From: Candidatus Latescibacterota bacterium | GTDB lineage: Bacteria > Latescibacterota > UBA2968 > UBA8231 | Reading direction: 5' to 3' | DNA length: 64,000 bases | Assembly (NCBI GenBank): GCA_965248265.1 | Contig: CBDFJF010000001.1 | Coordinates: 2,080,001-2,144,000 of the forward strand | Shown here: piece by piece, positions 28,709 to 37,564 of the stretch | Numbering within the stretch: position 1 is the first letter of the stretch | How the letters are laid out: each line of letters opens with the position of its first letter | Program-made: the position numbers and the translations under genes | The notes under the pieces: generated by a model | What the model saw: only the letters and a program-made list of their open reading frames with translations | Databases searched by the model: none | What the model was told of the DNA's origin: nothing

Positions 28709-30844
28709 ATGAATCTTTTCGATCTGTTTGCCAGCCTGGACACCGGCGCCATCACCACCGTGGCAGGCGTCGGCTACAGCGAGGGCATAGAAGCAGCCGA
28801 AGCCGATATCGGCTGGCCCATGGGCGTCGTTAGGCTGCCCGATGGCGATCTCGTCTTCGCCGATATCCGCGGCCACCGCATCTGGCGCATTGATCTTGAG
28901 GGAATCCTCCACACCTTTGCCGGCGACGGCGTGCCAGGCAATTCAGGCGACGGTGGGCCGGCCCTCGACGGTCGCGTCTACACGCCCCACGACTTCTGTC
29001 TGGATTCCGAAGGCAACCTGTTCTTTTCCCAATTGGGTGCCCGCGGGCCCGACGAGGGTCCGAATACCATTAGAAGGATCGACCACCACACAGGTATCCT
29101 CACTACAGTAGTCGGCAATGGCAGGATGGGCCGCGGCGGCGAGGGCCTGCATGCGTTGGAAGCCGAGTTCGACACCACCACCGGGATCGCCGTGGATGAG
29201 GCTGGCAACCTGTTCGTCTGCGGCAAATGGGACAGCAATGTGCGCAAAGTCGATGCCCAGACTGGGATCATGTCCCTTTACGCCGGCCAAACCACGCGTC
29301 ATTACCCCGCGGAACGGGACACCAGTCGACCCTATAGCGGCAGCGCCTATTCCTTCGGCGGTTTCCACGGTGACGGTGGGCCAGCCTCCGAAGCCGCCCT
29401 CTACCATCCTGAACACCTGGCGTTCGATTCCGGGGGAAACCTCTATGTGTGCGACAACGGCAATCACCGTGTCCGGGCCATTGACCGCGACTCAGGCGTC
29501 ATCAACACCGTCTTCGGCGACGGCCAGGCCGCCTCGAGCGGCGATGGTGGCCCGGCAGTCGAGGCCAGCAGCCACGCGCCGGACGCCCTCTTCATTGACG
29601 GCCGCGGCCATCTCTACGTCGGTGAGGCCAGAGGCTGCAAGGTGCGCAAGGTCGATGGACGCACCGGCATGGTCTCGACCCTGGCGGGCACGGGGATCCC
29701 GGGGTTCGGCGAGGAAGGCCTGCCGGGACCCCAGACTCGTTGCAGCGCCGTCGAGTCTGGCATCTGGGTGGACGACGATGGCACCGTCTTCTACAGCGAC
29801 TCCACCGGACACCTTCGCCGTATCGATGCGGACACCGGCATCGTCAACACCGTGGCCGGGGGCACCAGCATCCATGACGGGGGACCAGCGGATCGAGCCT
29901 ACCTCGGCTGCCCCCGAGCGCTCTGCGTCGGTCCCGACGGCCACATCTACTTCTGTGACATGGTCCATGACCGCATCCGCGCCATCGACCCGGACACTGG
30001 CATCATACGGACGATAGCCGGTGATGGCGGACGCGCCTATGGAGGCGATGGCGGCCCGGCGACCTCCGCCTTCCTGCTCAATCCCTACGGTCTGTGTGTG
30101 GACCGCCAGGGCTGCGTCATCATCGCCGACACCCTCAGCAACCGCATCCGACGGGTCGATGATCGGGGCATCATCGAGACCATCGCCGGCACGGGAGTGG
30201 CGTCAGACCAGGGCGACGGTGGACCCGCTCGTAACGCCCCTGTCAACACTCCGCACGCGGTGGCCTGTCATCCCGGCGGCGATCTGTATATGGGGGATGC
30301 ATCTGGCCGCATCCGCGTCATCGACGGATCGGAGCGCATCCGCACGTTGATCGGTATTGGCCGGCAGGGCTGGAGTGGAGACGGCGGACCGGCCACGGAC
30401 GCACGGATTGGCACCCCGTCCTCCATCTGCTTCGATGCGGCCGGCAACCTCTACTTTGCCGATTTGACCCAACACGTCATACGCAGGGTGGATACTCACG
30501 GCATCATCACGACCCTGGCAGGCAGCGGAGAGCAGGGGTTTTCTCCAGACGGCACCCCTGCACGGGAAGCGCGTCTCCATCGGCCGTTCGGCGTAGTCGT
30601 CAGCAACGGCGGCACCGTCTACTTCTCCGATGCGCGCAACAACCGCGTTCGACGGATTGCTGCGGACGGCTCCTTGCAGACTATTGCCGGGGGCGACTAC
30701 GGCGGAGACAGCGGTGACGGAGGGCCGGCCATCCACGCCCGCCTCAACGAGCCCCATGGCTTGTGCCTGTACGGTGACGCCATCCTTCTTATCAGTGACC
30801 ATTACAACAACCGCATCAGGGCCGTGAAGCTCGACGCGGTTTGA
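28709..30844 (+). CDS. NHL-repeat (teneurin-like) beta-propeller protein
   Basis: About 12 repeats of I.T.AG.G..g..GDGGPA..A.l..P.gl..d..G.ly..D..n.riR.id; no signal peptide. Confidence 0.85.
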   Translation: MNLFDLFASLDTGAITTVAGVGYSEGIEAAEADIGWPMGVVRLPDGDLVFADIRGHRIWRIDLEGILHTFAGDGVPGNSGDGGPALDGRVYTPHDFCLDSEGNLFFSQLGARGPDEGPNTIRRIDHHTGILTTVVGNGRMGRGGEGLHALEAEFDTTTGIAVDEAGNLFVCGKWDSNVRKVDAQTGIMSLYAGQTTRHYPAERDTSRPYSGSAYSFGGFHGDGGPASEAALYHPEHLAFDSGGNLYVCDNGNHRVRAIDRDSGVINTVFGDGQAASSGDGGPAVEASSHAPDALFIDGRGHLYVGEARGCKVRKVDGRTGMVSTLAGTGIPGFGEEGLPGPQTRCSAVESGIWVDDDGTVFYSDSTGHLRRIDADTGIVNTVAGGTSIHDGGPADRAYLGCPRALCVGPDGHIYFCDMVHDRIRAIDPDTGIIRTIAGDGGRAYGGDGGPATSAFLLNPYGLCVDRQGCVIIADTLSNRIRRVDDRGIIETIAGTGVASDQGDGGPARNAPVNTPHAVACHPGGDLYMGDASGRIRVIDGSERIRTLIGIGRQGWSGDGGPATDARIGTPSSICFDAAGNLYFADLTQHVIRRVDTHGIITTLAGSGEQGFSPDGTPAREARLHRPFGVVVSNGGTVYFSDARNNRVRRIAADGSLQTIAGGDYGGDSGDGGPAIHARLNEPHGLCLYGDAILLISDHYNNRIRAVKLDAV

Positions 30845-30960: not shown

Positions 30961-31194
30961 ATGACGATGTTCGTACTGCTGCAGAATGCTGCGCCCACAC
31001 AGCAACGGCTCAAAGCAGCCATCGATGAGTTCAACCGATCGATCAGCACGGAGACGCTGATCGTGTCAGCCGTTGTGCTGCTGATCGCTCTGCTGTGGCT
31101 CTACGCCATGAAACGTGCCTACCAGGCCTGGTTCATGCGCAAGCATGGTTTCCAGGATTCGTATATGCGAAAACGCAAGAAGTTCGACGACTGA
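30961..31194 (+). CDS. Small single-TM hypothetical protein
   Basis: 77-aa ORF with one hydrophobic helix and basic C-terminus. Confidence 0.55.
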   Translation: MTMFVLLQNAAPTQQRLKAAIDEFNRSISTETLIVSAVVLLIALLWLYAMKRAYQAWFMRKHGFQDSYMRKRKKFDD

Positions 31195-31298: not shown

Positions 31299-31335
31299 TG
31301 GCGGCGCACGCCTCCGGATTTGGCGCAAACCGCCA
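31299..31335 (+). promoter_or_regulatory. Putative tandem enhancer (UAS) sites for the PspF-like activator
   Basis: TGGCG-GCGCA-CGCCT (31299-31313) and TGGCG-CAAAC-CGCCA (31321-31335), 22 bp apart, about 80 bp upstream of a sigma54 promoter; same palindrome recurs before pspA2. Confidence 0.65.
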
Positions 31336-31412
31336 TTCGATCAGTCGAAAGGAATGTTGTAACTCGTTTTCCCAGTGAGAGCTTGCGACATTATTATCGA
31401 GTCCTGTCGGGC

Positions 31413-31428
31413 TGGCACATCCCTTGCA
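31413..31428 (+). promoter_or_regulatory. Sigma54 (-24/-12) promoter of the pspA1 operon
   Basis: TGGCAC-ATCCC-TTGCA. Confidence 0.85.
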
Positions 31429-31523
31429 TAACAGGTGGCAGACCCCTGCGTTGCACCACAGATGGTGCGCAGTCGAAATGCCAGGGGTACTGGACGAATC
31501 GAAAAGGTGACGGGAGAGCGAAA

Positions 31524-32219
31524 ATGGCCAAGGGAATGTTTGCTCGCATGGCGGATATCGTGAAGTCAAACATCAACGAGCTGCTTGACCGGGCGGAAGA
31601 ACCGGAAAAGATGATTCGGCAGATGATCCGCGAGATGGAGGACGCCGTGGGCAAGGCCACCGCGTCGGTCGGCACGGCGTTGGCCAACCAGAAACGGCTG
31701 GAGCGTCAGCGGAATGAGAAGCTGACCCAAGTGGCTGAGTGGCGGCGCAAAGCGGAGATCTCCGTTGCGGCGGGTGACGACGATCTGGCTCGGCGAGCAC
31801 TCGAGCGCAAGAGCGGGCTTCAGAAAGCGGCTGATGAACTGGGTCCGGCCGTGGAAGAGAGCAGTCAGATGGCCGAGCAACTCAAGGAGCAGCTACGGGA
31901 ATTGAAAGGAAAGCTGGAGGAGGCGCGTACCCGTCAGGGAACGCTGGTGGCGCGCCATCAGGCGGCCCGGGCGCGGGCTAAACTTGCCCAGAGCATCAAT
32001 GGGCTGGGAAGCGACGCGTTCTCGAGTTTCGAGCGCTTCGAGCAGAACGTCGAGCGCAGTGAAGCCGAAGCCGAGGCCCACACCGAGATCGCCGGCGAAT
32101 TGGCCGAGGTCGAGCGCCAAGCAAACCGTCTCGATCGCGAGGTGGCCGTGGATGATGAGTTGCGGGCGCTGAAGGAAAAGCACAACGCCCAAACGGGCGG
32201 GGACCAAACACGAGACTGA
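31524..32219 (+). CDS. pspA: PspA/IM30 family protein (paralogue 1)
   Basis: GMFARMADIVKSNINELLDRAEEPEKMIRQMIREMED, W..KA.....GDDDLAR.AL..K, FERFE..V...EAEAEA, VDDEL.ALK. Confidence 0.95.
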   Translation: MAKGMFARMADIVKSNINELLDRAEEPEKMIRQMIREMEDAVGKATASVGTALANQKRLERQRNEKLTQVAEWRRKAEISVAAGDDDLARRALERKSGLQKAADELGPAVEESSQMAEQLKEQLRELKGKLEEARTRQGTLVARHQAARARAKLAQSINGLGSDAFSSFERFEQNVERSEAEAEAHTEIAGELAEVERQANRLDREVAVDDELRALKEKHNAQTGGDQTRD

Positions 32220-32226
32220 GGCCGCA

Positions 32227-32751
32227 ATGCGTCTGCAATGGATACTGGAAGGCGGTATCAAACGACTGGGGGGCCTGTTTCTGCTGGTTTGGGCCATTCC
32301 CCTGTTCGCCGTGGGACTGGGACTTATGCTCTGGGGTCTATCGAAGGCTCTGACCTTGGCCATCCATACCGGCCCGCCTGGTTTTCTTCTGAGCGGAAGT
32401 CACTTCGAGCACCCGCTGTCCATCGGCGTCGCCCTCGTCGTGCTGAGTGTGTTAATGTGGGTCGGATCTCGCCGGCTGGACGCAGCCGTACGCACGTTGA
32501 AGGATCGCCGCGTTGAAAATGCTTTGTTGCGTCTGGCGCAGCAACGCGGTGGTCGGCTCACGGTCATCGAAGCTGCCGCGGAAACCGGTTACACCGCCGA
32601 GGAGGTGGCCCTCGTGCTCAGAAGGTTGTCAGAGCAGGGCTTTGTCGAGATCGAGGTCACGGATGCCGGTGTGATGGTGTATCGTTTTCCCGAAATCGCC
32701 TACGCGCCAACACCGGGTGAGAGCTGGACGAACAGAATAGAATCGGCGTGA
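32227..32751 (+). CDS. Two-TM membrane protein with C-terminal winged-helix-like domain
   Basis: Two hydrophobic segments, then LLRLAQQRGGRLTVIEAAAETGYTAEEV..VL..L...G.V...VTD.G..VYRF. Confidence 0.75.
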   Translation: MRLQWILEGGIKRLGGLFLLVWAIPLFAVGLGLMLWGLSKALTLAIHTGPPGFLLSGSHFEHPLSIGVALVVLSVLMWVGSRRLDAAVRTLKDRRVENALLRLAQQRGGRLTVIEAAAETGYTAEEVALVLRRLSEQGFVEIEVTDAGVMVYRFPEIAYAPTPGESWTNRIESA

Positions 32752-32769
32752 ACCGCGCCGGGAGGACTC

Positions 32770-32928
32770 GTGTCCGCGTCGGACAACGAGGTGAAGGAAC
32801 GCCTGACCCAGATTGAGAGACGCCTGACGGACACGCAAGAAGTGATGATCGCCTTGAACGAGAAAATGGATCGTTGGGAGGAAGGTCCCCGAATCAGGAG
32901 CGAGCAATGGTCGAAGTCATCTTCATAA
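32770..32928 (+). CDS. Small soluble coiled-coil protein (52 aa, not in ORF track)
   Basis: GGAGG RBS at 32761, GTG start; MSASDNEVKERLTQIERRLTDTQEVMIALNEKMDRWEEGPRIRSEQWSKSSS; similar to the next gene. Confidence 0.72.
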   Translation: MSASDNEVKERLTQIERRLTDTQEVMIALNEKMDRWEEGPRIRSEQWSKSSS

Positions 32929-33134
32929 GTATAGCCATCGCCGTCGTCATCCTCAGTGCCGGTGCTGTAAAGTGGATGAACATCTATATGCATAGGCGGC
33001 CGACGGCTGCCGATGCCGGTATCGATGAACTCGGGCAGCGCCTCGATGTCATCGAGGGAAGACTCCGCGATATCACCGACGTAATGATTTCGGTCAGCGA
33101 AAAGGTAGATAGCATGGACCAGACGCGGCCGTAG
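32907..33134 (+). CDS. PspB-like single-TM protein with C-terminal coiled coil
   Basis: AGGAG RBS; N-terminal TM, then ELGQRLDVIEGRLRDITDVMISVSEKVD. Confidence 0.7.
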   Translation: MVEVIFISIAIAVVILSAGAVKWMNIYMHRRPTAADAGIDELGQRLDVIEGRLRDITDVMISVSEKVDSMDQTRP

Positions 33135-33153
33135 ACGAACAGGAGAGCAACGG

Positions 33154-33306
33154 ATGGATATTCTGTGGAAAATCGCCGGGGTCGTCCTACTGATCGGCGG
33201 CGCGATCATCGCCTTCAAACTGATCGCCAGTATGTTGATGTTTGTCGTCACCGTGGCGGTCGCCGGAGGGCTCATTTACGGCGGTTACCGGTTGCTGACG
33301 CGTTAA
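33154..33306 (+). CDS. Small two-TM membrane protein (50 aa, not in ORF track)
   Basis: AGGAG RBS at 33141; MDILWKIAGVVLLIGGAIIAFKLIASMLMFVVTVAVAGGLIYGGYRLLTR; its TAA overlaps the kinase ATG. Confidence 0.78.
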   Translation: MDILWKIAGVVLLIGGAIIAFKLIASMLMFVVTVAVAGGLIYGGYRLLTR

Positions 33307-34697
33307 TGGTGCAGACGGCCGGTACAGAGGACGCCGCCGCGGGCGCTGTCGCGTCAGAGACGGAGGTCTTCTTTCGGCGGGGTATGGCCCTGCTGAAAGA
33401 TGGTCAGCAGGTCGAAGCGAGGGAGGAACTCGAACGCGCCGCCTCTGCCGGCCACATGGAGGCGCACTTTCAACTGGCTCTGCAGTACGCACGCGACGGG
33501 CGGCACCAGCGCGAGATACATAGACGCGCCGTCGAGCACCTGGAAGCGATTCTCGCATCAGCGGACGAACCGGACGGGATCGATACCCTCACCGCTGGCC
33601 TCGATCGGGTTTGTTTCGCCCTTGGCGGTTTGTACGCCGACAGCAACGGAGAGGGATCGCTGCAGCGCGGCATCGAAGTCTACCGCCGCGGGCTGACGAT
33701 CAATCCCCTGTCCGCGGTCGGTCACAGCAGTCTTGGACTCTTGCTCAAGAGGGCCGGGCATTACCTCGGCGCTCTCGGCGAATGCAAGCTGGCCATTCAA
33801 CTCGACCCCGACCACAAGGCGGCCTACACCAGCCTCGCTCAGCTGCTGTGCGAACACGTCGATGCGCAGGATCTGGCCACCGAGTATGCCCACATGATGG
33901 AAGAGTTCGGGGAGAGCGCACCGCGCGTGATCGCGACGTTGTCCATCGAGCTGATGGAACAGGGCCGTGGACAGATGCAGCGGGAAATGTACACGAAGAG
34001 CCACCAACTCAAGAATCTGCTGGGTCTCGTCGGCAGCCGTCTGCGCCGCGTCAGCCGCAAGCTGACGAAACGGGAAAAGGTATCAGCACCATTGGAGGAG
34101 CTCGTCGACGAGGTTGGCGAGGAGATGCACGGCGTCGAAGCGGAGTACGAACGACTCTACGAAGAATGGGTCGGTTTCCTGGCGGCGCTGACGCCGGACA
34201 CCCTATACACCAGCCTGGTGGAACCGGGGCGTGTCGTCGAGCGCGTGCTCGAAGCGCTGAGGCCGCGGGCCGGGGACACGGCACTGAAGTTGAGAACTCA
34301 TGAAGGGGTCCCCCGCATTCAAGCCGACGAGCGACTCCTGCGCGATGTGATTACCAACCTGTGCCTGAACGCCCTCGAAGCGACGGCAGAGCTGGGAGCC
34401 GGAACTGAGATTTCGGTAGGAGTGGGATATGATGCCAGCGCCGGTGTCGTCTTCGTCGAAGTCGAGGACGAGGGCCCCGGGATCGCCCCCGAGTACATCG
34501 ATCACGTCTTCGATCCAGGGTTCACTACCAAGGACAACGGCAGTGGCTACGGCCTGAGCATCGCTCGCCGCATCGCCCTGGCACACCACGGCGATCTCAG
34601 GGTGAAGAGCAAAATCGGGCACGGCAGCGTCTTCCGACTGGACATACCCGTGAACTTCGATGCGGAGGCTGGTCCTCACCTGGGGGAGATCCGGTAA
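33306..34697 (+). CDS. Soluble TPR-domain sensor histidine kinase
   Basis: N-terminal TPR/Sel1-like helices; H-box SHQLKNLL, N-box NLCLNALEA, G1 DEGPGI, F FDPGFTTK, G2 GSGYGL; no TM. Confidence 0.88.
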   Translation: MVQTAGTEDAAAGAVASETEVFFRRGMALLKDGQQVEAREELERAASAGHMEAHFQLALQYARDGRHQREIHRRAVEHLEAILASADEPDGIDTLTAGLDRVCFALGGLYADSNGEGSLQRGIEVYRRGLTINPLSAVGHSSLGLLLKRAGHYLGALGECKLAIQLDPDHKAAYTSLAQLLCEHVDAQDLATEYAHMMEEFGESAPRVIATLSIELMEQGRGQMQREMYTKSHQLKNLLGLVGSRLRRVSRKLTKREKVSAPLEELVDEVGEEMHGVEAEYERLYEEWVGFLAALTPDTLYTSLVEPGRVVERVLEALRPRAGDTALKLRTHEGVPRIQADERLLRDVITNLCLNALEATAELGAGTEISVGVGYDASAGVVFVEVEDEGPGIAPEYIDHVFDPGFTTKDNGSGYGLSIARRIALAHHGDLRVKSKIGHGSVFRLDIPVNFDAEAGPHLGEIR

Positions 34698-34698
34698 C

Positions 34699-36123
34699 AT
34701 GGCGCCCACCGAAGCTGCCGGCGTTGTGCTGATCGCCGACGATCAACCAGAGGTACTGGACGTGTTGGCGCAGCATCTGCGCACTCGCGGCAAGCAGGTG
34801 TTGGAGTTTCCCACTGGTGCCCTGCTCGCCCAGCATTTGAATCAGACCGCCGACGCCGTCGAGCTGGTCGTGCTGGATCTCGACTTCGGTGCCGGCGAGC
34901 AGGATGGCATCGCCACCCTCAGGCAGATCAAGCGAGATCGTCCCGACACCCCCGTCATCATCCTCACTGGCAAGGGCAACGTCGACGCCGCCGTCGACGC
35001 CGTGCAGCAGGGCGCGGCTGATTTCATCGAAAAGGACCTATTCGTCGAGGACAAGCTCGAACTGAGCATGGAAAAGGTGGAGCGCATGCTGCAGGTCTTG
35101 CGTGAGAACGCTGAACTGCGCGCCCGCAACCAGACCTTGGACCGCGACAACACGCTCTATCGCTCAGAACTGGGGCTCCGTTACCGCATCATCAGCGACA
35201 GCCCCAAGATTCACAGCATCCTGCGCCAGGTCGAACAGATCGCCAGCGTGCCGCGACCCGTCCTGATCCGGGGCGAGCGCGGCACGGGCAAGGAACTGAT
35301 CGCCGCGGCCCTCCACTACGGCAGCGATCGCGCCGATCGTCCGTTCGTCAAGCTCAACTGCGCGGCGGTGTCGGAATCACTCCTCGAAGCAGAGTTGTTC
35401 GGCCACGAAAAAGGCGCGTTCACCGGCGCCAATGAGGCGCGGCCCGGTCGCTTCGAAATGGCCGATGGCGGCACGCTGTTCCTTGATGAAATCGGTAACA
35501 CCAGCCTGGAGTTTCAGCAGAATCTGTTGCGTGTCATCGAGTACCCCGAGTTTGAGCGCATAGGCGGCAAGCACACGATTCGAGTCGACGTGCGCGTGGT
35601 CGCGGCGACCAATGCCGAACTCGAGGAAGCGATCACGCAGGGCAGTTTCCGAGCCGATCTCTACGATCGACTGCGATTCTCTGAACTGTCGATACCGCCG
35701 TTGCGACAGCGACGCGAAGACATCCGATTGCTCGTCGATTTTTTCGCTGCCGAGATGACGCGGGAAGTCGCCTCGATACCGGCACGCGGCTTCAACCCCC
35801 AGGCGCTGGCCGCCTTGGAAACCTATGGCTGGCCGGGTAACGTCAGAGAGCTCAAGTTTGCCGTCGAAAGGGCCCTGTGCGTGGCGACGGGTGAAGCCGT
35901 GGAGCCGGCCGATCTGCCACCTGAGATCACCATCGGCAAGACCGCCCCGAGCGACCAGACGACAGCCTCCTTCGACGATCAACTGGAAGGACTCGAACGC
36001 GGTATACTGCGACGCGCACTCGACGAGGCCAATGGCAGCCAGAAGAGTGCTGCAACCGCACTCGGCCTCACCTATGACCGCTACCGGCACCTGCTGCGCA
36101 AGCACAGCCTCACCGGCCAGTAG
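34699..36123 (+). CDS. Sigma54-dependent response regulator (REC-AAA+-HTH), PspF-like
   Basis: REC (ADD, LD, T, K); [48 protein letters not shown]; PspF-type [25 protein letters not shown]. Confidence 0.92.
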
Positions 36124-36130
36124 CACCGAT

Positions 36131-36266
36131 TCCCTGCTGAGTAGCTTCGGTGGCGATCAGCGCCACGAGCAACACTATACTCCCTGCTGAGTAGCTTCGG
36201 TGGCGATCAGCGCCACAAGCAACACTACACTCCCTGCTGAGTAGCTTCGGTGGCGATCAGCGCCAC
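36131..36266 (+). repeat. 50-bp tandem repeat (2.7 copies), each carrying GTGGCG-ATCAG-CGCCAC
   Basis: Units start at 36131, 36181 and 36231; units 1 and 2 differ at 2 positions; palindromes at 36150-36166, 36200-36216, 36250-36266. Confidence 0.95.
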
Positions 36267-36331
36267 GCCGTTGGCCCCACCCGCCTTCAGCTGTTTCGTT
36301 ACAATAGCGATAAATCATTCAAGTTTATTAA

Positions 36332-36344
36332 AAACAACAGATTG
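36332..36344 (+). promoter_or_regulatory. Possible IHF site in AT-rich spacer between UAS and sigma54 promoter
   Basis: AAACAACAGATTG, one mismatch to WATCAANNNNTTR, inside an unusually AT-rich tract (about 36300-36352). Confidence 0.4.
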
Positions 36345-36372
36345 TAAGTTTTGTCGGGCAATCAGAATCCTC

Positions 36373-36387
36373 TGGCACAGTCCTTGC
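36373..36387 (+). promoter_or_regulatory. Sigma54 (-24/-12) promoter of the pspA2 operon
   Basis: TGGCAC-AGTCC-TTGC. Confidence 0.85.
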
Positions 36388-36452
36388 CATGAGTGTTTTG
36401 TGGACTCGGCCATTGCGGGTCCGTCGGTTTTCGCTAATTGCAGAGGAGGTAG

Positions 36453-37163
36453 ATGATGGTCAAGTCAACGCTGGGTCGAATCGGACACATTCTGTCATCC
36501 AGTGTCAACGACGCTCTGGACCGACTCGAAGATCCGGAGAAGCAGGTGCGTCAACTCATCCGGGACATGGAGGCAGCAATCGAGGACGCCATCCGTTCGG
36601 TGAGTACGGCGGTCGCCGATGAGCGACGGCTTGCCCGTCGCTGCGAAGAGGATGAGCGTCAGGTGAAGAAGCTCGACAAGTTGGCCCGTCGCGCGATCGA
36701 AAGCGGCGACGAGAGTCTCGCCCGCGCCATGACCGTACGTCGACTGGCGTACGAGCAGGCGAGCGCCGTCGATGCCCTCGGCGAAAGCCGCGACACCGTG
36801 ACCAGGCTGAAAACCCAACTCACCGAGATGCGTTGCAACCTGCAGCAGGCACGAGACCGACAAGGCAGTCTGATCGCTCGTATTCGGGCGGCCAGATCCA
36901 TGCCGGGATGGTCGACGACGGCCACGGCTCAGAAGGAAGATCCCTACGCGGACTTTCAGCGTCTTGCGTGCAAGCTCGATCGCAGTCGCGAAGAGCTCGA
37001 ACACCTCAGGGCTGAGGTCGAAATCTTCGAAGAGACCAAGGTGGGAATAGAAGAGGAACAGACCGGCACCGGGGCGGCATTCGAAAGGCAGGTGCGAGAT
37101 CTCGAGCTGAAACGGCGTATCGACGAGGAGATGGATCTGCTGCGACAGAAAGTGGGCACCTGA
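36453..37163 (+). CDS. pspA: PspA/IM30 family protein (divergent paralogue 2)
   Basis: GAGGAGG RBS; LGRI..ILSS.VN.ALD.LEDPEK..RQLIRDME, A..AI..GDE.LAR, IDEEM..LR.K. Confidence 0.85.
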   Translation: MMVKSTLGRIGHILSSSVNDALDRLEDPEKQVRQLIRDMEAAIEDAIRSVSTAVADERRLARRCEEDERQVKKLDKLARRAIESGDESLARAMTVRRLAYEQASAVDALGESRDTVTRLKTQLTEMRCNLQQARDRQGSLIARIRAARSMPGWSTTATAQKEDPYADFQRLACKLDRSREELEHLRAEVEIFEETKVGIEEEQTGTGAAFERQVRDLELKRRIDEEMDLLRQKVGT

Positions 37164-37564
37164 TGACTCCTCTACATGTCTCACCCCGTTCGCGACTCGT
37201 TGCCCTCGTACTCTGTTTCTTCGCCGGTTTTCTTGGCGCTCACCGGTTTTACGTCGGCAAGACCGGCACGGCCCTGCTCATGCTGGTCACCTTTGGCGGA
37301 TTTGGTCTGTGGACCCTCATCGATTTCATCCTCATAGGGCTCGGTTCGTTCGCGGATGACCGGGGGTACCTGCTGCTGAGGTGGAGTGTCGAGGAGCCGA
37401 CATCGAGCGTCGAGGTGCCATCTCGGAGTGAGGTGCCGCCCGAACCCGATGTACCCGCCCGACGGGAGCTGGTGACGAGGATGGACCGGATCGATGGTGA
37501 ATTGTGCGACCTGCAATCGATCATGACGAGAATAGACGGGAGACTCGAACGTCCTCGATTGTGA
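37163..37564 (+). CDS. TM2-domain membrane protein with C-terminal coiled coil
   Basis: SRLVALVLCFF.G.LGAHRFYVGK.GT..L...T.GG.G.W..IDFI.I..G.F.D..G; start overlaps pspA2 stop (TGATG). Confidence 0.88.
   Translation: MTPLHVSPRSRLVALVLCFFAGFLGAHRFYVGKTGTALLMLVTFGGFGLWTLIDFILIGLGSFADDRGYLLLRWSVEEPTSSVEVPSRSEVPPEPDVPARRELVTRMDRIDGELCDLQSIMTRIDGRLERPRL

Follow-up and report, generated by a model that had tools for sequence, protein, structure and literature searches.

Three regulatory designs have been characterized for membrane repair by the phage shock protein (Psp) response, whose effector PspA is a bacterial ESCRT-III protein: the activator PspF held off by PspA, the two-component system LiaRS, and ClgR. 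Here we describe a locus at positions 31299-37564 of a 64-kb stretch of DNA (64,000 nucleotides, hereafter the window) from a Candidatus Latescibacterota bacterium (contig CBDFJF010000001.1, positions 2,080,001 to 2,144,000), which appears to represent a fourth, conserved design, i.e., a PspF-type sigma-54 engine gated by a receiver domain and a soluble tetratricopeptide repeat (TPR) kinase. We consider it probable (roughly 0.7) that the locus is a membrane-stress regulon of the phage-shock type, specific to its lineage and under two-component control, in which the signal would pass from the kinase to the regulator, from there to upstream dyads, and so to two sigma-54 promoters.

The Psp system of E. 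coli and Yersinia (pspF, pspABCDE and pspG) resembles this locus in its PspA effector, in its sigma-54 promoter with upstream activator sites and in its PspF-like activator with AAA+ and helix-turn-helix (HTH) domains. As described in part of PMC9239133, pspG is a separate member of that regulon, and the locus studied here has a comparable second member. However, the activator here carries a receiver, has an apparent cognate kinase and is without two of the three residues of the YLW patch; homologues of PspB, PspC and PspD are absent from the locus; there are two PspA paralogues, both apparently driven by sigma-54; and the regulator genes lie inside their target operon, whereas in E. coli and Yersinia they are divergent from it.

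The LiaIH-GFSR system of B. subtilis is alike in having a PspA homologue (92.8 bits here against the LiaH model), a two-component system at the same locus, small membrane proteins and an autoregulated logic. In that system LiaS is a membrane kinase and LiaR a receiver (REC)-HTH regulator acting at a sigma-A promoter (main text of PMC11237479), whereas here the kinase is a soluble TPR protein and the output is of the sigma-54/AAA+ type. LiaI, LiaF and Toastrack domains were not found by Pfam among the locus proteins. With NtrB/NtrC, ZraS/ZraR and AtoS/AtoC the locus shares the REC-AAA+-Fis architecture and paired dyads about two helical turns apart, but here PspA is the output, in place of metabolism or metal tolerance, the input is a TPR kinase, and the AAA+ domain is closest to that of PspF. 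In Gammaproteobacteria, PspF variants with N-terminal ACT or PAS domains occur beside psp genes, with PspB and PspC kept (main text of PMC11237479). In these, too, a regulatory domain has been added at the N terminus of a PspF-type activator; the domains gained there bind ligands, whereas here there is a phospho-receiver, a kinase and a different set of membrane genes. Two-component systems with REC-HTH regulators are included in the Psp surveys (main text of PMC11237479 and PMC9239133), and the psp activator of Desulfovibrio is a single component (part of PMC4641369).

A sequence-only reading of the window had not recognized the layout as a characterized system. In agreement with this, the main text of PMC11237479 and PMC9239133 (whose supplementary tables were outside our scope and may hold such a context) describes no receiver-bearing PspF with a TPR kinase, a TM2 partner or the small proteins found here, and a literature word search returned nothing relevant on PspA with a receiver-bearing sigma-54 activator, on PspA with TM2, or on phage shock in Latescibacter. 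Judged from its genes and promoters, the system would work like a Psp or Lia response yet belong to neither regulatory type. Its features, in order, are as follows (TM, transmembrane; aa, amino acids; nt, nucleotides).

31299-31335, + strand: predicted upstream activator site 1, a pair of 15-bp dyads spaced by 22 bp, at 31299-31313 (one mismatch) and 31321-31335 (exact TGGCG-N5-CGCCA)
31413-31428, + strand: predicted sigma-54 promoter P1, TGGCAC-N5-TTGCA, 96 nt before the pspA1 start
31524-32219, + strand: pspA1, PspA/IM30 (bacterial ESCRT-III) protein, 231 aa; PF04012, 148.5 bits, E 2.7e-43
32227-32751, + strand: membrane protein with two TM helices and a winged helix (2TM-winged-helix), 174 aa; the C-terminal winged helix is predicted to be cytoplasmic
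32770-32928, + strand: small soluble motif protein, 52 aa, without a TM helix; GTG start, ribosome-binding site GGGAGGA
32907-33134, + strand: small single-pass membrane protein, 75 aa; N-terminal TM helix, then the predicted cytoplasmic motif
33154-33306, + strand: small hydrophobic protein, 50 aa; two predicted TM helices
33306-34697, + strand: soluble histidine kinase with TPR and HATPase_c domains, 463 aa
34699-36123, + strand: REC-Sigma54_activat-HTH_8 regulator, 474 aa; alternative start at 34660
36131-36267, + strand: predicted upstream activator site 2, a 50-bp tandem repeat of 2.7 copies with 96% matches; exact dyads at 36151, 36201 and 36251
36373-36388, + strand: predicted sigma-54 promoter P2, TGGCAC-N5-TTGCC, 65 nt before the pspA2 start
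36453-37163, + strand: pspA2, divergent PspA/IM30 paralogue, 236 aa; PF04012, 90.4 bits, E 1.7e-25
37163-37564, + strand: TM2-domain membrane protein, 133 aa; PF05154, 73.1 bits, E 2.1e-20; motif in the C-terminal tail

All nine genes are on the + strand within 31299-37564, and every gene listed by the sequence-only reading is present, tightly spaced or overlapping as it had stated. From pspA1 to the regulator gene the successive gaps are 7, 18, -22, 19, -1 and 1 nt, and a Shine-Dalgarno sequence precedes each of the small open reading frames (ORFs). A spacer of 329 nt separates the regulator gene from pspA2, the pspA2 and TM2 genes overlap by 1 nt, and the next gene 3' of the TM2 gene is convergent. 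The placing of the kinase and regulator genes at the 3' end of the operon that they appear to control was also seen correctly. The description of the locus as self-contained holds with a reservation: rpoN, in single copy, and a third PspA paralogue are located elsewhere in the genome.

The pattern TGGCAC-N5-TTGCH is matched at two places in the window, 31413 and 36373 (chance expectation 0.11; none of 100 shuffles reached two), and the dyad TGGCG-N5-CGCCA has four exact matches, at 31321, 36151, 36201 and 36251 (chance expectation 0.14; 0/100 shuffles reached four). All four exact dyads are upstream of the two sigma-54 matches, as expected from the earlier claim that two sigma-54 promoters share one palindrome. 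The dyads of site 1 lie 92-114 bp ahead of the -24 element of P1. Counted over the whole genome (7.3 Mb), sigma-54-like sites number 59 and exact dyads 43; a sigma-54-like site with an exact dyad no more than 320 bp upstream occurs only at P1 and P2. With GG at -24 and GC at -12 in the correct spacing, an activator site upstream and rpoN present in the genome, both are predicted to be genuine sigma-54 promoters. Another sigma-54 site, at G000:C1:187928, has a dyad with one mismatch and no open frame downstream, and was taken as chance.

This arrangement was also seen in relatives. We searched 41 related genomes for orthologues of the kinase, and retrieved 20 loci for comparison of synteny. A strict match to TGGCA[CT]-N5-TTGC precedes pspA1 in 18 of the 19 relatives' loci that have upstream DNA, and it is the sole such match on its strand in 11-14.5 kb, save for an extra intragenic match in locus L038. 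Paired dyads with at most one mismatch were present before pspA1 in seven of the eight loci of family f1 with enough upstream DNA, the eighth having a single dyad; six of the pairs are spaced by 21-22 bp and one by 32 bp. When the g19 loci were aligned, the same paired-dyad geometry was observed, with variant half-sites.

The dyads before pspA2, one in each copy of a tandem repeat that the sequence-only reading had not noticed, are spaced by 50 bp, compared with the 22-bp pair before pspA1. The tandem duplication that triples the pspA2 enhancer begins 8 nt past the stop codon of the regulator gene, and the 50-bp repeat was seen in no relative examined. Short-read contigs break inside it, and a shared 37-nt piece had 2.6-4x the depth of either flank (in runs from a single sample), which fits the presence of several repeat copies.

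Full-length orthologues of the kinase, with 42-59% identity, were found in 22 of the 41 related genomes (including that of the window itself), with fragments in two more. In 20/20 of the relatives' loci, drawn from three families, pspA1, the 2TM-winged-helix gene, the kinase gene and the regulator gene follow in this order on one strand, so that the possibility that the gene set is not conserved together, named beforehand as one that would tell against the system, did not materialize. Between one and three small motif-family genes lie between the 2TM-winged-helix and kinase genes in 19/20 loci, and relatives of the 50-aa protein occur in 11/20. When 168 species genomes of the phylum were counted at E <= 1e-50, the kinase was present in 98 (48/75 in f1, 28/31 in f2 and 21/22 in f4), and in 0/39 genomes of the other eleven families. 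The PspA family was found in 133/168, typically with three copies in genomes having the kinase and one in those without it. The domains, catalytic residues, promoters and dyads, and their conservation, are read directly from the DNA.

The regulator has the features of an NtrC-family protein, i.e., a receiver, a GAFTGA-bearing AAA+ domain and an HTH of the Fis type. Its Pfam matches are Sigma54_activat (223.7 bits), AAA_lid_14 (78.5 bits) and Response_reg (68.6 bits against a cut-off of 30.2, at residues ~10-114). The acidic-pocket motif LDLD (D60/D62) is kept in 20/20 orthologues, as is GAFTGA or GAYTGA. The earlier description of the protein as a receiver-bearing relative of PspF was borne out: its AAA+/HTH part shares 47% identity with E. 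coli PspF across 320 aa, it is the best match to PspF among 30 in the genome (279 bits, vs 229 for the next), where about 29 activators score above the Sigma54_activat cut-off, and by E-value its top NCBIfam model is pspF. The score against that model, 369.5 bits, is below the equivalog cut-off of 443.55, and of the PspF models TIGR02974 and PRK11608 neither reaches its threshold, the second score being 312 vs 529. Models for AtoC (369 bits) and NtrC (361 bits) also stay under their cut-offs. PspF itself is defined as having no N-terminal regulatory domain and as being regulated in trans by PspA; on the first of these points the Response_reg domain sets the regulator apart from it.

In PspF, the Y51-L52-W56 patch is a determinant of PspA binding (part of PMC3791423). 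The residues of the regulator that align with it are Y207, G208 and A212. Among the 20 orthologues the L52 position is occupied by G or S and the W56 position by A, R, K or S, and in none by L or W. The engine would therefore be PspF-like but switched by a receiver, with the known docking surface for PspA apparently mostly gone.

The sequence-only reading had also proposed that the kinase is soluble and carries TPR repeats, and we reached the same view. There is no hydrophobic segment, the maximum hydropathy over 19 residues being 1.13. The structural model (predicted local distance difference test, pLDDT, 84.3) contains nine TPR-type helices (18-184), a long helix (187-256) bearing H233, a return helix (263-295) and the ATP-binding domain, which matches HATPase_c with 79.6 bits. 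H233 is invariant in 33/33 sequences, and in a second alignment the H-box histidine is kept in 21/21; the K/N following H233 and the G1 and G2 boxes are also invariant. The H-box resembles that of NtrB-type kinases. With an ATP-binding domain and a histidine in a modelled DHp hairpin, the protein would qualify as a histidine kinase.

Both PspA1 (148.5 bits) and PspA2 (90.4 bits) pass the PF04012 cut-off of 33.9 bits, and neither reaches the cut-off of the NCBIfam pspA equivalog (242.95; PspA1 166.2 bits, PspA2 71.8). PspA1 shares 36% identity with E. coli PspA across 217 aa, and its orthologues are 59-72% identical. In 0/20 relatives was a pspA2-TM2 pair found directly 3' of the regulator gene, so that the double-pspA locus is particular to this genome. 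Thus, the sequence-only description of a double-PspA locus was correct for the window, where both pspA genes are present, but not as a conserved unit, since in relatives pspA2-TM2 is unlinked.

We inspected these second pspA genes in 11 relatives. A sigma-54-like site was present in front of the gene in 10/11 (nine strict, one a TGGTAC variant), and a dyad with at most one mismatch lay ~90-170 bp above the promoter in 9/11, the remaining two being f2 genomes in which the dyad differs. Behind the second pspA, a gene for a TM2 protein with the motif was found in six genomes, all f1, and a relative of the 50-aa protein in three from f2 and f4 (G029, G036 and G040); in the other two none was recognized. 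In a phylogenetic tree PspA2 clades with five of the unlinked second pspA genes (support 100/99), on long branches beside the f1 PspA1 proteins. Because the unlinked second units have their own promoter and dyad, the lineage as a whole has a two-promoter regulon, the units of which happen to be side by side in this genome.

The third PspA paralogue (G000:C2:3394525-3395211, L001) is 28% identical to E. coli PspA, follows a gene for a 132-aa acidic protein and is not preceded by a sigma-54 site; genomes that are without the kinase seem to have this type as their single PspA. In G004 and G005, a helix-turn-helix ORF of 80-84 aa with paired dyads adjoins the second pspA unit (L053, 2725-2967, - strand; L049, 574-828, + strand). 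In G004 this ORF also has its own sigma-54 site, and the genome of the window has at least eight paralogues of it, none of them at the locus.

No homologue of PspB or PspC was found in any of several searches, as expected from the earlier statement that the membrane partners are non-standard. None of the 20 members matches PspB (PF06667) even at E <= 10, and hhalign against E. coli PspB gave a probability of 2.9%; the small locus proteins are like PspB only in layout, i.e., a TM helix followed by a short helix. No locus protein matches PspC (PF04024) at E <= 0.01, and tblastn of E. coli PspB and PspC against the genome returned no match. The sequence-only reading had counted three tiny coiled-coil or membrane genes. 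These genes are present, but they are not generic coiled coils: the small motif proteins form one conserved family, defined by a TM helix at the N terminus and a near-invariant helix, R-L-x-x-h-E-x-R-L-T-D-h-Q-D-V-M-I-x-h-x-E-K-x-D-R, on what is predicted to be the cytoplasmic side. The 52-aa ORF is a copy without the TM helix. It is in frame with the 2TM-winged-helix gene and starts 18 nt past the stop codon of the latter (window 32749-32772); because it has its own ribosome-binding site, read-through from the upstream gene is not required.

The same motif is found at the end of the TM2 proteins (5/5 orthologues, two of them from genus g6), and tblastn cross-matches join the tail of the TM2 protein to the small motif genes. 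The TM2 domain itself (PF05154) spans residues 8-56, with 73.1 bits against a cut-off of 27.9. Since the motif is kept in TM2 proteins of g6, where the kinase has no orthologue, the kinase is unlikely to be the sole partner of the motif. When 1.84 billion representatives were searched with a profile, 260 relatives of the small motif family (representative clusters) were returned, 113 of them at E <= 1e-10. When 20 longer matches were scanned, nine, of 305-517 aa, had a CBM9-like domain ahead of the TM + motif module (P0314, P0317, P0339, P0347, P0367, P0381, P0382, P0389 and P0378), which places the motif on the cytoplasmic side. These results suggest that the motif could be a portable output or docking element. 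One motif-family match, of 1776 aa, has 14 matching stretches.

The 2TM-winged-helix protein is encoded directly 3' of pspA1 in 20/20 loci. It has no Pfam family at cut-off, and its own family comprises 208 clusters, none with a Pfam domain. The AlphaFold2 model (pLDDT 83.6) shows the fold of generic winged helices without a standout match: in Foldseek the first row was 3cuq_A (ESCRT-II), with E 7e-3, while in a wide structure search ESCRT-II VPS22 (Z 10.4) was tied with Z-alpha, ArsR and MarR at Z 10-10.7. In a separate profile search the CdvB model had E 0.092. The helix at the DNA-recognition position has a net negative charge in 19/19 orthologues, most of which have a neutral to acidic domain; the charge of this helix makes us lean to a protein-binding role.

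The mechanism that we favour is two-component control of both pspA units. The soluble kinase, in which the TPR domain is joined via one long helix to the DHp hairpin, would autophosphorylate at H233 and pass the phosphate to the receiver of the PspF-type activator, at the LDLD motif (D60/D62). The activated regulator would then bind TGG-N9-CCA dyads ~90-220 bp above the promoters and open both of them. P1 would drive pspA1, the genes for the 2TM-winged-helix protein, the small TM + motif proteins and the 2TM mini-protein, and those for the kinase and regulator, while P2 would drive pspA2 and the gene for the TM2-motif protein. The PspA proteins would be the effectors, acting as membrane stabilizers of the ESCRT-III type. 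As the kinase and regulator genes are on the predicted pspA1 transcript, positive autoregulation would follow. We infer the partners in phosphotransfer, the binding to the dyads, the stress signal, the feedback and all contacts between proteins. The membrane proteins most likely stand in for PspB/PspC or LiaI/LiaF, either anchoring PspA or relaying information on it, and the TPR domain is the likely site of input. Our preferred guess is that PspA or its membrane partners are sensed by this domain, in which case feedback from PspA would enter at the kinase and not at the AAA+ ring.

Several observations weigh against this proposal or limit its reach. In the eleven f2 and f4 loci, an insert of about 4 kb sets the kinase gene apart from the small genes, which makes a single transcript less certain there, and internal sigma-70 promoters may exist at any locus. 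The nineteenth of the relatives' loci with upstream DNA, L045, has a poor sigma-54 variant as its pspA1 promoter, and no sigma-54 match was detected ahead of the second pspA in G040. At the protein level, HTH_8 in the regulator scores 19.0 bits, below the cut-off of 22, although the C terminus aligns with the HTH of PspF, and the kinase has no match to the Pfam HisKA models. The nature of the signal is read solely from the identity of the output genes; when RNA runs were searched, none was listed as containing the locus. Finally, genus g6 has the pspA2-TM2 unit with promoter and dyad (L049, L050) and no orthologue of the kinase, and the regulator of G019 from this genus (L062, G019:C71, 1438-2745; 73% identity) is without its first ~61 residues, including the phospho-acceptor Asp. 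At least there, the output can exist without the phosphorelay. The G019 gene may be a natural receiver-less, PspF-like derivative, or it may be decaying; in L062 a solute-symporter gene lies upstream of it, on the opposite strand.

The state of affairs in g6 bears directly on a different form of control, like that of E. coli, in which the regulator would be kept inactive by direct binding of PspA1 and/or PspA2 to its AAA+ domain, and the receiver and kinase would provide no more than a second, unrelated input. A genus that seems to run pspA2-TM2 with a truncated receiver and no kinase would need a brake in trans, such as PspA. The AAA+/HTH core is moreover the closest relative of PspF in the genome, and Y207 aligns with Y51 of the YLW patch. 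However, the L52 and W56 positions are replaced in 20/20 orthologues, and the patch is the key PspA-binding determinant (part of PMC3791423), while the full acid pocket and the dedicated kinase argue that phosphorylation is the main switch. We therefore regard direct inhibition by PspA as unlikely. That the kinase-regulator pair is merely adjacent, with its own promoter and other targets, and that the dyads are bound by another of the ~29 activators in the genome, is very improbable. It is true that so many activators are present, that the link of this regulator to the dyads is drawn from the DNA, and that in f2 and f4 a distance of 4 kb separates the pair from the small genes. Nevertheless, order and strand are kept in 20/20 loci from three families, none of the 39 genomes of the other eleven families has the pair, the dyad and promoter are combined nowhere else in the genome, and no other activator in it is as PspF-like as this regulator.

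The 2TM-winged-helix protein could, in principle, take over the role assigned to the TPR kinase, being both the sensor of stress and a membrane-tethered, DNA-binding regulator of these promoters, whether as repressor or as co-activator. Its gene always comes next after pspA1, its best structural matches include regulators of the MarR, ArsR and IclR types, and there are weak matches to MarR_2 and HTH_Crp_2. We doubt this strongly, given that the negative charge of the helix at the recognition position is a constant feature (19/19) of a mostly neutral to acidic domain, that no Pfam DNA-binding family is reached at cut-off, and that a protein-binding winged helix (ESCRT-II VPS22) ties with the DNA binders at Z ~10. 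A more speculative extension of the two-component proposal, which we hold to be a long shot, gives the 2TM-winged-helix and TM + motif proteins the part of a membrane-recruitment layer for ESCRT-III, in the role of ESCRT-II or CdvA. The motif, which also ends TM2 proteins and exported CBM9-like sensor proteins, would be a portable docking peptide that couples different membrane sensors to PspA, and the TPR kinase would read the state of assembly. The membrane-anchored, acidic winged helix may then nucleate or cap PspA polymers, and the kinase may read whether PspA is free or assembled, the phosphorelay serving to monitor ESCRT-III assembly. A complex prediction with the TPR domain, PspA1 and the cytoplasmic part of the 75-aa protein, made without controls, gave 0.13 vs a mark of 0.32 and favours neither side.

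Under the two-component proposal, the locus, which is solidly conserved in part of the phylum, would extend a known stress response without introducing a new principle. An activator without most of the surface for inhibition by PspA raises the question of where PspA feedback enters. Three unnamed families, i.e., the 2TM-winged-helix protein, the TM + motif module and the 2TM mini-protein, become candidate partners of PspA, and the pspA2 unit would be the first genomic link between TM2-domain proteins and PspA. The lineage is apparently uncultured, so that any test would have to go through reconstitution in a heterologous host.

A role in anti-phage defence was dropped, since PADLOC returned no more than a generic AAA+/HTH resemblance for the regulator and, for PspA2, a single marginal match to LmuB. 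A search for the kinase in the general genome contigs gave four distant HATPase matches only, and no orthologous locus. Searches of a protein atlas returned generic neighbours, with no family or fold. DUF1559 (PF07596), looked for as a planctomycete marker, gave no match, and neither did the control. In G012 (G012:C35:15512-18597) there are in-frame stops in the matches to the kinase (TGA, TAA) and to pspA1 (two TAG), and from its sequence this locus looks like one that is decaying. One annotated example of the f2/f4 insert (L037, 3393-6284) contains genes for an extracytoplasmic function (ECF) sigma factor, a 230-aa membrane protein and a 534-aa Band_7/flotillin protein; Band_7 beside pspA is a known association (part of PMC9239133). 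The same locus has, 3' of the regulator gene, a gene for a SpoIIE-type phosphatase with a DUF975-like membrane domain. On the 5' side of the locus in the window, a 77-aa TM ORF (30961-31194) between a repeat-protein gene and the psp promoter was left out of the system, having no counterpart in the loci of the 20 relatives. The repeat protein, just upstream of the locus (window 28709-30844, + strand), is 711 aa long and rich in Gly and Asp.

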